DNA of 64,000 nt. Origin: Escherichia coli. GTDB taxonomy: Bacteria > Pseudomonadota > Gammaproteobacteria > Enterobacterales > Enterobacteriaceae. A program made the position numbers and the translations under genes. Under the pieces are notes generated by a model. It was not told the origin of the DNA. It did no database searches and saw only the letters and a list, made by a program, of their open reading frames with translations. This document shows positions 15,961 to 23,800 of the stretch, one piece after another (position 1 is the first letter of the stretch; each line of letters begins with the position of its first letter). Location: the NCBI RefSeq assembly GCF_001677475.2, contig NZ_CP015229.1; one strand, given 5' to 3'.

Positions 15961-17154
15961 GTGACCTGGGACGATCACAAGAAGAATTTTGCTCGCCTGG
16001 CGCGAGATGGTGGTTACACCATCGCACAGTATGCCGCCGAGTTTAATCTTAACCCTAATACCGCACGTCGTTATCTCCGTGCCTTCAAAGAAGACACCAG
16101 GACAGCGGACAGCCGCAAGCCAAATAAGCCAGTCAGGAAGCCACTAAAAAGCATGATCATTGATCACTCTAATGATCAACATGCAGGTGATCACATTGCG
16201 GCTGGAATAGCGAAAAAACAAAGAGTTAATGCCGTTGTCAGTGCCGCAGTCGAGAATGCGAAGCGCCAAAATAAGCGCATAAATGATCGTTCTGATGATC
16301 ATGACGTGATCACCCGTGCCCACCGGACCTTACGTGATCGCCTGGAACGCGACACCCTGGATGATGATGGTGAACGCTTTGAATTCGAAGCTGGCGATTA
16401 CCTGATAGATAACGTTGAAGCGCGGAAGGCCGCGCGCGCTATGTTGCGTCGGTCCGGGGCCGATGTTCTGGAAACCACTCTTCTGGAAAAGTCTCTTTCT
16501 CATCTCATTATGCTGGAGAACGCCAGGGATACGTGTATTCGCCTGGTGCAGGAAATGCGCGATCAGCAAAAAGACGATGATGAAGGTACTCCGCCTGAAT
16601 ACCGTATCGCGAGCATGCTAAACAGCTGTTCCGCGCAGATAAGCAGTCTGATCAACACCATTTACAGCATCCGGAATAACTATCGAAAAGAAAGCCGGGA
16701 GGCGGAAAAGCACGCTTTATCTATGGGGCAAGCTGGCATTGTTAAGCTGGCATACGAACGAAAGCGTGAAAATAACTGGTCAGTGCTGGAAGCAGCTGAA
16801 TTCATCGAGGCGCATGGTGGGAAAGTGCCGCCCCTGATGCTGGAGCAAATCAAAGCCGATCTGCGTGCTCCTAAGACCAATACCGATGATGAGGAAAGGC
16901 AAACTGCCGTCGGTGGCCCTTCTCTTGAAGATCTGGACAAAGTTGCGCGAGAACGGGCCGCCAACCGCCGCGCCGATGCCGCATTGTGGATTGAGCAACG
17001 TAGGGAAGAAATCGCCGATATCGTTGATACAGGCGGTTATGGAGATGTTGATACTGAAGGTGTATCAAACGAACCATGGCTGGAACAAGACCTGGACGAA
17101 GACGAGGAGGAAGACGAAGAAGTTACCCGCAAGCTATACGGGGATGATGATTAA
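15961..17154 (+). CDS. pacA: terminase (pacase) small subunit PacA
   Basis: 397 aa; GTG start after AAGGAAG; contains the pac hexamer cluster; precedes pacB with a 1-nt overlap. Confidence 0.85.
16154..16312. other. pac packaging site (4 + 3 hexamers TGATCA/TGATCG flanking the cleavage region)
   Basis: TGATCA at 16154, 16161, 16173, 16188 and TGATCG/TGATCA at 16284, 16296, 16307, all containing Dam GATC, inside pacA as described for P1 pac. Confidence 0.7.
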
Positions 17155-20342: not shown

Positions 20343-21194
20343 TTATTGCGCGCTTTCGGGGTTGTCGTTTACTGGCTGCCCCTTCTTAGTTTTACGGCTG
20401 CGCGTAACTGATGCGGCTGACTTAACCTTTTTCTCTTCGCGAGTGATGGCAATTTGTTTTTTTACATTTTCAATATCTGCCAGGCGATATATTTTTGCTT
20501 GCGGCCAGCGGTCGCAGATGATCGGTTCTATGGAGTCATAAAGGCTAAATTTTGCTTTTTCGAATTCACCGTTGATGATAATTCCATCACGGAGAGTTTC
20601 ATCGCAGATAAACACGCCACACAGTGGCACATGGTAACTAACTGATTTACCATCATTGTAGTTAGGGCTACTGGAAATGTAGTGGACGCGCAGCATTGTT
20701 TCGCTAAAGCCGTGTACGCGCATACGGAATTTTTCATCCTCTGGGTACTGCTTCATTAGCTCTTTTGTTGCTTCCAGGTTCTCTATGTATTTCGCACTGT
20801 GCTCATTGATCCCCGCGCTTTTTTGGATGCGAATGTCCTTATCAATCAGATGAATAATGCGGCCAGCGGTCATGTTGACGCTGTTCACAGCTTCTGTCTG
20901 ATAAGTCGTAACCTTACGTACACCGCGAAGGATGTTAGGCACAGGATATAAAATAGTCTTTGGGATATTGAGGTCTGGGTACTGTTCCAGTTCCCGCGCC
21001 ATTAAAGTCCATTTATCAATTTCAGCCTGAATGCTGTCTGTTTCTTTGAACGGTAGAACGACAACCGGGCGTACAGGACGACCGTCGCTGGCGGCATCAA
21101 CGTGTTGGGCGCGTGCAACAGCTTTTTTTAGAAAGAGATCCCTGAAGCTGACGAACTCCTGGTACAGTTGTTCGCCGTAGACATAATTTATCAT
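20343..21194 (-). CDS. c1: C1 repressor of lysogeny
   Basis: 283 aa MINYVYGEQLYQEFVSFRDLFLKK...; length and sequence match P1 C1 as recalled. Confidence 0.95.
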   Translation of the reverse strand: MINYVYGEQLYQEFVSFRDLFLKKAVARAQHVDAASDGRPVRPVVVLPFKETDSIQAEIDKWTLMARELEQYPDLNIPKTILYPVPNILRGVRKVTTYQTEAVNSVNMTAGRIIHLIDKDIRIQKSAGINEHSAKYIENLEATKELMKQYPEDEKFRMRVHGFSETMLRVHYISSSPNYNDGKSVSYHVPLCGVFICDETLRDGIIINGEFEKAKFSLYDSIEPIICDRWPQAKIYRLADIENVKKQIAITREEKKVKSAASVTRSRKTKKGQPVNDNPESAQ

Positions 21195-21288: not shown

Positions 21289-21305
21289 AGATTTATTAGT
21301 GCATT
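21289..21305 (-). promoter_or_regulatory. candidate C1 operator between coi and c1 (weak, 14/17)
   Basis: reverse complement AATGCACTAATAAATCT. Confidence 0.3.
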
Positions 21306-21514
21306 TATTGTGAGTCTAACTGGTTAGTTGCCATGAGATATTCGATTGTGTCAGTGAGGTCATCCAGGTCGTCTTGGGTGATGCGGTACTCCTGATTGGA
21401 TATCTTTGAGTAGTGTTCAGCAATGGCGCGAGCAGCGTCGGTTTCGGCGGGGTCTACAGATAAAGCGTTAGAGCAATGTCTAACATCGTCGATGGTTGGT
21501 GGAATGAAAGCCAT
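21305..21514 (-). CDS. coi: Coi (C1 inactivator)
   Basis: 69 aa, directly upstream of c1 on the same strand as in P1 immC. Confidence 0.85.
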   Translation of the reverse strand: MAFIPPTIDDVRHCSNALSVDPAETDAARAIAEHYSKISNQEYRITQDDLDDLTDTIEYLMATNQLDSQ

Positions 21515-21752
21515 AATTATGCCTCACTGTATTGACAACACAGAGCCTGAAGCTCTGACCTACTGTTTCACCCATGTTCCATGCTGGGGTTATCTATCAA
21601 CATTGCGCTGTGTGTAAGATGAGCAATGCATAGCTGTAATGCCGTTGTATAAGGTTTCCCTGTTTGCTCATTTCCTTCTGAGCCGCTCTACAACGCTGAA
21701 GACACATTAAATAGTGAATCCAAAGTCGTATTACGAAACGGTGGCAAAACTA

Positions 21753-21769
21753 TAATTTATTAGAGCAAT
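21753..21769 (-). promoter_or_regulatory. C1-repressor operator (Op99-type)
   Basis: reverse complement ATTGCTCTAATAAATTA, 16/17, upstream of coi-c1. Confidence 0.75.
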
Positions 21770-21835
21770 TGTCAAACAACTATGAAAAACAATCCAGTTT
21801 TTGGCTGGTGGAGTGGGATTTATCTCTCAAAATAT

Positions 21836-21852
21836 ATTGCTCTAATAATTCT
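21836..21852 (+). promoter_or_regulatory. C1-repressor operator
   Basis: ATTGCTCTAATAATTCT, 15/17, divergent from the 21753-21769 site. Confidence 0.7.
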
Positions 21853-21895
21853 TGTTTTTTATGCGCAGCTGGACGTAAACTCCTCTTCAGACCTA

Positions 21896-21929
21896 ATAAC
21901 TTCGTATAGCATACATTATACGAAGTTAT
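21896..21929. other. loxP recombination site
   Basis: exact ATAACTTCGTATA-GCATACAT-TATACGAAGTTAT (13-bp inverted repeats around an 8-bp spacer). Confidence 0.97.
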
Positions 21930-21948
21930 CTTAAGGGTTATTGAACAT

Positions 21949-22021
21949 GATCAATTTACCTGTAAATCCATACAGTTCAATACCTTATCAGGTCAAATAG
22001 TGATCACTTGATCATTTGATC
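21949..22021. promoter_or_regulatory. GATC (Dam site) cluster between loxP and the cre-proximal genes
   Basis: four GATC within about 70 bp, three of them in TGATCACTTGATCATTTGATCA; P1 cre promoters are known to be Dam-sensitive. Confidence 0.4.
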
Positions 22022-22118
22022 AAGGTTGCGCTACGTAAAATCTGCGAAATGTTGGCAGTGTTAGTGCTCCAGATTTCGCGTAGCGCACTTAGCACCACCA
22101 ATCAATCAGAGGTGAAAA

Positions 22119-22340
22119 ATGGGATATTCAGCTGCTAAAGTGTCCACTCATCTTGAGCTTGAGAAAAACCGTGGTTACTGGCGGGCAAAAGGGTTTGAGC
22201 GTGATAGTTACCAACTGTCATTATCTCGCGGTGAAGAGAAAATAGAACGCACGCGCGGTCGCTGGCGTTTCTATGACGAGAACCATAAACAGGTAAAGGC
22301 AGATCCAATCCTGTACACTCTGCTGAAAACAATAATTTAA
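22119..22340 (+). CDS. small hypothetical protein (73 aa) between loxP and cre
   Basis: GAGGTG ribosome-binding site before the ATG; preceded by a long stem-loop (about 22026-22085). Confidence 0.5.
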   Translation: MGYSAAKVSTHLELEKNRGYWRAKGFERDSYQLSLSRGEEKIERTRGRWRFYDENHKQVKADPILYTLLKTII

Positions 22341-22359
22341 CTTGATCATGAGGTGATGC

Positions 22360-22755
22360 ATGTTTAATAGCCTGACGGATGCCAAGGTAAACGCCTTACT
22401 TAAGGACGCAAAACAAAAAGCTGCTAACCCTGGAACGAGTGAAAATGAACGTGCTATGGCCGTTGCAATTTGGGAGTTAGCAGAAGAAGTAAAGCGAAAC
22501 CGCATGCAGTACACTCGGGTTTACCAGCAATTTGATGGTGCAAGCTGGAAAGATATCGAAGAGGCTGAATATTCAGCATGCAAAGAAGAAAAAAAGACTG
22601 TTCGGATTTTGCATGAAGCAGCAACTCCAATCACTGTAGAAATCCCCGATCACAGATATTTCGAGAACGATGATCTACCTGGGGATGTGATTCGAATTAT
22701 TGATGAGATACTTCATGAACAAGGCTTAACTGTTAAAATTACGCATAATAAATGA
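22360..22755 (+). CDS. hypothetical protein (131 aa), translationally coupled to cre
   Basis: GAGGTG before the ATG; stop overlaps the cre ATG (ATGA). Confidence 0.55.
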   Translation: MFNSLTDAKVNALLKDAKQKAANPGTSENERAMAVAIWELAEEVKRNRMQYTRVYQQFDGASWKDIEEAEYSACKEEKKTVRILHEAATPITVEIPDHRYFENDDLPGDVIRIIDEILHEQGLTVKITHNK

Positions 22756-23783
22756 CTAAATCGTTAACCGTTCACCAAAATTTGCCTGCATTGCCGGTCG
22801 ATGCAACGAGTGATGAGGTTCGCAAGAACCTGATGGATATGTTCAGGGATCGCCAGGCGTTTTCTGAGCATACCTGGAAAATGCTTCTGTCCGTTTGCCG
22901 GTCATGGGCGGCATGGTGCAAGTTGAATAACCGGAAATGGTTTCCCGCAGAACCTGAAGATGTTCGCGATTATCTTCTATATCTTCAGGCGCGCGGTCTG
23001 GCAGTAAAAACTATCCAGCAACATTTGGGCCAGCTAAACATGCTTCATCGTCGGTCCGGGCTGCCGCGACCAAGTGACAGCAATGCTGTTTCACTGGTTA
23101 TGCGGCGGATCCGAAAAGAAAACGTTGATGCCGGTGAACGTGCAAAACAGGCACTAGCGTTCGAACGCACTGATTTCGACCAGGTTCGTTCACTCATGGA
23201 AAATAGCGATCGCTGCCAGGATATACGTAATCTGGCATTTCTGGGGATTGCTTATAACACCCTGTTACGTATAGCCGAAATTGCCAGGATCAGGGTTAAA
23301 GATATCTCACGTACTGACGGTGGGAGAATGTTAATCCATATTGGCAGAACGAAAACGCTGGTTAGCACCGCAGGTGTAGAGAAGGCACTTAGCCTGGGGG
23401 TAACTAAACTGGTCGAGCGATGGATTTCTGTCTCTGGTGTGGCTGATGATCCGAATAACTACTTGTTTTGCCGGGTCAGAAAAAATGGTGTTGCCTCGCC
23501 ATCACCCACCAGCCAGCTATCAACTCGCGCCCTGGAAGGGATTTTTGAAGCAACTCACCGATTGATTTACGGGGCTAAGGATGACTCTGGCCAGAGGTAC
23601 CTGGCCTGGTCTGGACACAGTGCCCGTGTCGGAGCCGCGCGAGATATGGCCCGTGCCGGAGTTTCAATACCGGAGATCATGCAAGCTGGTGGCTGGACCA
23701 ACGTAAATATTGTCATGAACTATATCCGTAACCTGGATAGTGAAACAGGGGCAATGGTGCGCCTGCTGGAAGATGGCGATTAG
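22752..23783 (+). CDS. cre: Cre tyrosine recombinase
   Basis: 343 aa, near-identical to P1 Cre (...TVHQNLPALPVDATSDEVRKNLMDMFRDRQAFSEHTWKMLLSVCRSWAAWCKLNNRKWFPAEPEDVRDYLLYLQARGLAVKTIQQH...); differs at the N-terminus (MTKSL vs MSNLL) and around ASPSPT. Confidence 0.97.
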   Translation: MTKSLTVHQNLPALPVDATSDEVRKNLMDMFRDRQAFSEHTWKMLLSVCRSWAAWCKLNNRKWFPAEPEDVRDYLLYLQARGLAVKTIQQHLGQLNMLHRRSGLPRPSDSNAVSLVMRRIRKENVDAGERAKQALAFERTDFDQVRSLMENSDRCQDIRNLAFLGIAYNTLLRIAEIARIRVKDISRTDGGRMLIHIGRTKTLVSTAGVEKALSLGVTKLVERWISVSGVADDPNNYLFCRVRKNGVASPSPTSQLSTRALEGIFEATHRLIYGAKDDSGQRYLAWSGHSARVGAARDMARAGVSIPEIMQAGGWTNVNIVMNYIRNLDSETGAMVRLLEDGD

Positions 23784-23800
23784 CCATTAATGCGTAAATG

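Follow-up and report, generated by a model that had tools for sequence, protein, structure and literature searches.

The window analysed here, a stretch of 64,000 nucleotides (nt) of Escherichia coli DNA (contig NZ_CP015229.1), contains at ~21.9–23.8 kb the immC-lox-cre region of a P1-like phage-plasmid, in which loxP is followed by two small plus-strand open reading frames (ORFs), by cre, and then by c8 and ref. The original prediction for this interval had described its extent, a cluster of Dam sites, a stem-loop, two ORFs preceded by GAGGTG ribosome-binding sites (RBSs), and a Cre protein starting with MTKSL, all of which are found in place. The first ORF, which is the P1 gene cra, the Dam sites, and the hairpin are textbook P1, and the second ORF, orf131, is an uncharacterized gene that makes this locus a three-gene variant of the cre operon. 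The distance from loxP to cre is 822 bp, and the elements that matter most are the following:

21896–21929, plus strand: loxP, an exact match to the lox pattern with 13-bp arms and the 8-bp spacer GCATACAT, also inverted repeat I3.
22119–22340, plus strand: cra (ORF1), encoding a basic protein of 73 aa with an isoelectric point (pI) of 9.7.
22320–22772, plus strand: recombinant segment of donor type (Salmonella-lineage-like), delimited by junction alignments.
22350–22357, plus strand: Shine–Dalgarno sequence GAGGTGAT of ORF2, 8 nt complementary to the 3' end of 16S rRNA.
22360–22755, plus strand: ORF2 (orf131), 131 aa.
22752–22755, plus strand: ATGA, comprising the ORF2 stop TGA and the cre start ATG.
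22752–23783, plus strand: cre, 343 aa, P1-type past codon 7.

orf131 is absent from P1 and P7, and a tblastn search against all 50,697 deposited phage records returned no match; this gene is the ORF in excess of P1 that had been predicted. It is present in 13 of 72,556 plasmids and in 31 of 5,426 complete E. coli genomes, every time on a plasmid of 87–117 kb, with many O111 or O103 strains among the hosts. Since about 692 of the same genomes contain cra, orf131 is found in ~4.5% of the cra-bearing ones. In IMG/VR, there are 11 orf131 loci, all P1-like. A word-index search of 5.8 billion proteins recovered six clusters at 90% identity, from E. coli and Salmonella, of which the farthest is 84% identical, and a HMMER scan of 1.84 billion representatives at 50% identity yielded a single genuine cluster besides a frameshifted fragment and a spurious match to a repeat protein (P0008), which was discarded. 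The gene is thus restricted to P1-like phage-plasmids, where it invariably sits precisely at the cra–cre junction; it recurs despite its rarity, being carried by a minority of P1-like plasmids. Eight variable regions have been catalogued for P1-like phage-plasmids, and the cra–cre indel is not among them (PMC9603915).

The arrangement of cra and cre with a 7-nt spacer and without orf131 occurs in P1, in Cronobacter phage JK004, and in the contigs L024 and L027, and it is common to lineages with a Cre that is 80% identical; the L025 lineage, whose Cre is 63% identical, has a spacer of 8 nt. Because all of these have the short spacer, comparison of the loci shows that the layout of cra, 7-nt spacer, and cre is ancestral, with orf131 as a gain, and loss of orf131 from P1 by a deletion between similar 5' ends is rejected on the same ground. 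Among P1-like contigs from Salmonella (L005–L009), the order is loxP, a 356-aa gene (phrog_7674), cra (71 aa), orf131, and cre (342 aa). Given that Cre starts with MTNSLTV with or without orf131, the gene was cleanly inserted into the spacer, which it fills in one Salmonella sublineage. These Salmonella loci have in common with the window orf131 itself (84–86% identical in protein and 88–89% in DNA), its RBS, the ATGA, MTNSLTV, and the loxP arms. They differ in that their Cre is only ~80% identical to that of P1, with a proportion of synonymous differences (pS) in cre of 0.81, and in that the backbone is far more diverged.

The manner in which the gene reached the E. coli backbone is recorded at the two ends of the inserted stretch. 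Homology to P1 ends near the 3' end of cra and resumes at cre codon 6–7. In the window and in plasmids of the pO111_2 type, the sequence is P1-type up to CCTGTACACT (22310–22319), after which the left switch occurs, Salmonella-type over 22320–22772 (cre codon 7), and P1-type again beyond the right switch, which follows ACCGTT. The donor-type segment therefore holds the last 7 codons of cra, which differ from those of P1 synonymously only, together with the RBS of orf131, orf131, and cre codons 1–7. When the window is compared with Salmonella contig L007, pS is 0.66 in cra, 0.26 in orf131, and 0.81 (saturated) in cre. Since the value for orf131 is far below those of its flanks, the gene was evidently exchanged between lineages long after their backbones had diverged. 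As shown by these alignments, a donor-type patch of ~450 bp entered an E. coli P1-type backbone by homologous recombination, with one crossover inside the final 21 bp of cra and the other in cre codon 7. The insertion or replacement next to cre that had been suspected from the unusual start of Cre is borne out in this form. Because the patch extends through cre codon 7, it fully explains the MT(N/K)SL N-terminus: Cre begins with MTKSLTV in the window, MTNSLTV in the donor, and MSNLL in P1, so that residues 2–4 differ from P1, and past codon 7 the proportion of nonsynonymous differences (pN) versus P1 is 0.006. The locus is a clean case of single-gene transfer by homologous recombination between diverged phage-plasmids, with crossovers within the flanking genes and a chimeric Cre N-terminus left behind. 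The GC content of orf131 (41%, and 34% at third codon positions, GC3) is lower than that of cre (51% and 50%), which suggests an origin outside this backbone. As a separate observation, the Cre substitution N3K (22758–22760, AAA versus AAT) is private to the window, all other orf131-bearing E. coli loci having MTNSL.

That orf131 is a real protein-coding gene is shown by the way its sequence varies. Five distinct alleles were compared at 87–95% DNA identity, and the differences among them gather at third codon positions. In the deeper pairs, the ratio of nonsynonymous to synonymous substitution rates (dN/dS) is 0.12–0.30 in frame versus 1.0–2.3 in the other two frames. The length of 131 codons is kept in 19 of the 20 loci that carry the gene (window included), L023 being frameshifted, and neither length changes nor indels separate alleles up to 12% apart in DNA. 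GAGGTGA, six nt upstream of the ATG, is retained in all 20, the window and the frameshifted L023 included. The coding conservation among relatives, on which the original prediction was to stand or fall, is therefore clear for ORF2. Constraint varies along the gene, with dN/dS of 0.05–0.08 in codons 91–131 (dS 0.4–0.6), 0.10–0.34 in codons 1–63, and 0.2–0.6 in codons 64–90, and ORF131 accordingly seems to consist of two modules under constraint with a variable linker (residues 64–90) between them.

Two side observations concern individual alleles. Frameshifted copies of orf131 are found in L023 (431–709, corresponding to P0006, 92 aa), where the change lies in the A-run GAAGAAAAAAAG, and in P0007 (63 aa); if they are genuine and not sequencing errors, they would uncouple the translation of Cre in those plasmids. 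In addition, an allele from IMG/VR (L013, 3001–3396) combines the window-type N-terminus LLKDAKQKAANPGTSENE with a remainder of the pO111_2 type, which suggests recombination inside orf131 between two E. coli allele groups.

The predicted product is a 15-kDa protein with a pI of 5.2 and a net charge of −6, lying between two neighbors, Cra and Cre, both of which have a pI of 9.7. Over its entire length (residues 1–131 on profile positions 1–131 of 131), ORF131 matches PHROG 20152, a family of unknown function, with E = 6.7e-84, and no other family was found in Pfam, NCBIfam, PADLOC, or the sequences of the Protein Data Bank (PDB). Among the defense profiles of PADLOC-DB v2, zero families matched either ORF at E ≤ 1. 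The analysis gave evidence neither in favor of the anti-defense role suggested in the original prediction nor against it. The earlier statement that neither protein has a recognizable domain agrees with these searches, given that Pfam, NCBIfam, and PADLOC yielded none. An N-terminal motif resembling DUF2786 or the J domain, which was considered for ORF131, receives no support from Pfam. The AlphaFold2 (AF2) model of ORF131 is of low confidence (predicted local distance difference test, pLDDT, 52); it places helices within residues 7–87 and strands at 91–95 and 125–129, which would make the C-terminal part a strand-helix-strand unit, and a Foldseek search of the PDB with this poor model gave no match with E < 1. 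Among the papers covered by the literature search, none refers to the protein, to its accession, or to PHROG 20152. By sequence, ORF131 is an orphan.

The junction of orf131 with cre deserves attention of its own. The original prediction had spoken of two translationally coupled ORFs; ORF2 does overlap cre, whereas ORF1 and ORF2 are separated by a gap of 19 nt and ORF2 has its own RBS. The ATGA in which the orf131 stop and the cre start overlap is identical in 19 of 19 intact loci, and in the same 19 the 20 nt preceding the cre ATG (GTTAAAATTACGCATAATAA) lack GGAG, GAGG, and AGGA. No RNA structure hiding the cre start was found. Compared with the cra-cre operon of P1, a 396-bp gene with a strong RBS stands in place of the 7-nt spacer, and the RBS of P1 cre and the −10 of P1cre (pR3), which fall precisely within the replaced stretch, have been swapped for donor sequence. 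In both operons, a small ORF immediately precedes cre, an arrangement suggesting that the translation of Cre is coupled to the upstream gene in each. Since orf131 lies inside the cre transcription unit, the promoters of cre would drive it along with cre, and its own strong RBS would ensure its translation. Given that cre lacks an RBS and that its ATG overlaps the orf131 stop, the synthesis of Cre presumably depends on ribosomes that finish orf131 and then restart at cre. The presumably soluble, mildly acidic 15-kDa ORF131 would then be present whenever Cre is, in lysogens and in early infection, and would act in trans.

ORF1 is a known gene, encoding Cra, the Cre-associated protein of P1. When the 50,697 phage records were searched by megablast, window positions 21850–22330 matched P1, P7, phiW39, SJ46, RCS47, and others at 95–98%, and the matched feature is annotated "cra: Cre-associated protein". 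The cra-containing stretch is 95.5% identical in DNA to P1 1–418. In the P1 reference (NC_005856), cra occupies 207–428 (73 aa) and cre begins at 436, 7 nt apart, with the promoters P3cre, P2cre, P1cre, and P2coi also annotated, and X03453 (Sternberg et al. 1986) already contains "pot. ORF1 (aa 1-73)" plus an RBS. The view that P1 has only promoters in this interval was therefore mistaken, and the possibility that P1 and its relatives carry both ORFs, which had been named as a refutation, holds for ORF1 and fails for ORF2. The position of the gene is as in P1, between loxP and cre, on the same strand and downstream of the Dam-regulated cre promoters, colinear with P1 1–428; GAGGTGA lies six nt upstream of its ATG. 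ORF1 matches phrog_804 over residues 3–73 (E = 1.1e-33) and is 93–95% identical in protein to the nearest Cra clusters (P0060 and P0061). The Cra family is found only in P1-like elements of Enterobacteriaceae. Its single match in NCBIfam, to a fimbrial usher family, is far below the cutoff (12 bits versus 933), and there are no Pfam domains among those precomputed for its homologs. It should be noted that in many RefSeq records of E. coli, Salmonella, Klebsiella, and Cronobacter, the PGAP label for Cra is "creatininase" (e.g., WP_282526074.1; L002, 2790–3011), which is almost certainly a misnomer spread via annotation.

What, then, does ORF131 do? Cre-lox works in P1 without ORF131 and needs no helper in vitro or in heterologous hosts. 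Taken as a whole, the explanation favored here, and one we consider rather probable, is that of a P1 cre operon with one extra gene that was gained and laterally moved, for which cargo is the best guess. That ORF131 is "moron-like" cargo directed at the host or at competing elements is, as a statement of its own, tentative, and we would give it slightly less than an even chance. The guess is made because P1 and ~95% of its relatives carry out Cre-lox recombination without ORF131, because loxP and Cre are unchanged, and because the gene is patchy, laterally moved, and compositionally foreign. Its presence or absence varies among otherwise near-identical backbones, and as in morons and the accessory cargo of P1-like elements, variable presence (31 of 692) goes together with atypical composition (GC 41% versus 51%, GC3 34% versus 50%), small size, and probable expression from the prophage. 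As cargo, ORF131 would not be needed for Cre-lox recombination and would ride on the low, constitutive transcription of cre in lysogens and in early infection, with the overlap with cre being the price, or the condition, of inserting there while keeping Cre.

Several points weigh against cargo. Classic morons have their own promoter and terminator and are placed between operons, whereas orf131 lies within an operon and overlaps a downstream gene of essential function, and a consensus scan of 21700–23800, which also misses the known weak cre promoters, detected no promoter or terminator of its own. Homology, structure, and experiment assign no activity to ORF131 (the AF2 model with its pLDDT of 52 and the empty Foldseek search included), and we infer the expression of orf131 and its translational coupling from sequence. 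Furthermore, the gene is seen in no other context, and a locus-specific role, linked to Cre or Cra, fits at least as well.

Such a role is the substance of the strongest alternative, according to which the recombination module has in ORF131 a dedicated partner that binds Cre, Cra, or loxP and tunes recombination by damping Cre, by favoring resolution over fusion, or by setting the dosage of Cre; it would explain why ORF131 is made stoichiometrically with Cre. Consistent with this are the occurrence of orf131 nowhere but between cra and cre among 1.84 billion representative proteins, the ATGA overlap and the missing cre RBS in every intact locus, the flanking of an acidic protein (pI 5.2) by two basic ones (pI 9.7), and the location of the gene within the operon with no detected promoter or terminator of its own. 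However, ~95% of E. coli elements with cra and cre, as well as P1, do without orf131, and Cre-lox is established as self-sufficient. ORF131 is still 84–89% identical where the accompanying Cre proteins have dropped to ~80% identity, and the two show no sign of covariation; ATGA overlaps are common among unrelated phage genes, and there is no evidence of interaction. We therefore regard a dedicated partner as unlikely, if the best of the alternatives. A more specific form, in which ORF131 is a small acidic modulator of Cre-lox made one-for-one with Cre that binds Cre, Cra, or the synapse, restrains or directs recombination, and might descend from the N-terminal domain of Cre, is somewhat less likely still.

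The stakes of these readings differ. Few recombination tools are as widely used as Cre-lox, which is considered to work without accessory proteins. If it is true that ORF131 touches Cre, it could be a natural Cre regulator or inhibitor, and if the modulator reading is true, it would be the first accessory factor known for a system believed to need none. If ORF131 does not touch Cre, it would be one more uncharacterized cargo gene of P1-like phage-plasmids in Shiga-toxin-producing E. coli and Salmonella. A natural variant of the cre operon that ties the translation of Cre to a conserved orphan offers a cheap and well-defined experiment.

It has also to be considered that the protein is irrelevant and that the insert is neutral or selfish DNA, or acts only in cis, as a spacer or leader governing the translation of Cre, with the frame kept open only for the ribosomes that have to reach cre. 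The apparent need of Cre translation for an open upstream frame, the frameshifted copies (L023/P0006, in the A-run, and P0007), and the rarity of orf131 would all accord with this. Yet an open frame puts no constraint on amino acids, and dN/dS is nevertheless 0.05–0.08 in codons 91–131 and 0.1–0.34 in codons 1–63, with length invariant and indels absent in alleles up to 12% apart in DNA, which makes this explanation improbable.

The least probable explanation, by a narrow measure, is that ORF131 is a diverged tandem partial duplicate of the 5' part of cre, that is, of the N-terminal core-binding domain of Cre, and possibly a decoy or dominant-negative subunit: MFNSLTD is similar to M[TS]N[SL]LTV at residue 1, colinear patches follow, PGDVIRIIDEILHEQGLTVK resembles PEDVRDYLLYLQARGLAVK, ORF131 41–76 aligns to Cre 20–51 (pairwise BLASTP, E = 0.007), the N-terminal half of ORF131 is predicted to be helical, and for the window allele with P1-type Cre the shuffle z is 4.5–4.8 versus the N-terminal domain and ~0 versus the C-terminal domain, but the patches were spotted post hoc, hhalign against a 47-member profile of the Cre N-terminal domain gives P = 0.08 and a probability of 0.7%, z falls to 0.3–2.7 for the Salmonella ORF131 alleles against Cre proteins at least 80% identical to that of the window, and likewise for Salmonella-type Cre, which stands for the presumed source lineage, GC3 is 34% versus 50%, and the predicted strand-helix-strand of the C-terminal part is unlike the all-helical Cre domain, a bundle of four or five helices. 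ORF131 has no match to the SAM-like integrase domain of Pfam, and its resemblance to the Cre N-terminus is probably due to chance.

Around these genes, the window retains the regulatory apparatus of P1. The loxP site, Dam sites, LexA box, inverted repeat, cra, and cre are colinear with those of P1 and 93–100% identical. The remaining elements are as follows:

20343–21194, minus strand: c1.
21305–21514, minus strand: coi.
21949–22021: regulatory region shared with P1, containing four GATC Dam sites, a LexA box, the P2coi promoter, and the −35 hexamer of P3cre.
22027–22087: inverted repeat I2, with 18-nt arms (22027–22044 and 22070–22087) and a 25-nt loop, also in P1.

The region 21949–22021 is 93–97% identical to P1 37–109, where Dam sites 1–3, the LexA site, P2coi, and the P3cre −35 are annotated. 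In the window, GATC occurs at 21949, 22002, 22010, and 22018, and the LexA box, CTGT-N8-ACAG, at 21960–21975. The Dam site at 22002–22005, just upstream of the P3cre −35, is extra with respect to P1, the sequence being GTGATCAC in the window and GTGACCAC in P1. The −10 of P3cre, at about 22036–22041, lies beyond this region and inside the inverted repeat. The arms of the repeat are 89% complementary, and the RNA fold of its surroundings has a free energy of −32.4 kcal/mol (z = −2.3). In P1, the repeat differs by few substitutions, mostly in the loop, and is without annotation in the record. A role as an intrinsic terminator is ruled out, as no T-run follows it. Given that it covers the P3cre −10, much of it would lie outside the P3cre transcript, and it is perhaps a protein-binding site. 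Like ORF1, the Dam sites, LexA box, and inverted repeat belong to the conserved features of P1, and none of the four is peculiar to the window.

A few minor observations remain. A 10-mer that includes a Dam site, ACTTGATCAT, is present at two places: next to the P3cre −35 within the Dam cluster (22006–22015) and directly upstream of the orf131 RBS (22340–22349). As it is not conserved in the Salmonella loci, the repetition is probably due to chance. No further lox half-sites or meaningful repeats were found in the insert. The 356-aa gene that sets the Salmonella loci apart from the window, together with their Cra of 71 aa (~61% identical), lies between loxP and cra (L007, 2699–3769) and is also present in L005, L024, L027, and JK004 (L012), with its stop overlapping the cra start. 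It belongs to phrog_7674 and has no Pfam match; homologs at 31–45% identity are found in phages of Vibrio, Bordetella, Microcystis, and Sinorhizobium, and the Microcystis match overlaps what is annotated as a site-specific recombinase. Its presence in diverged lineages indicates that the gene content of the loxP–cre interval varies at more than one point. Elsewhere in the window, GATC is clustered a second time, with four copies at 16155–16192, three at 16285–16311, and one at 16336. A possible counterpart of the Dam-regulated packaging site pac of P1 is suggested by the 4+3 pattern of 16155–16311.

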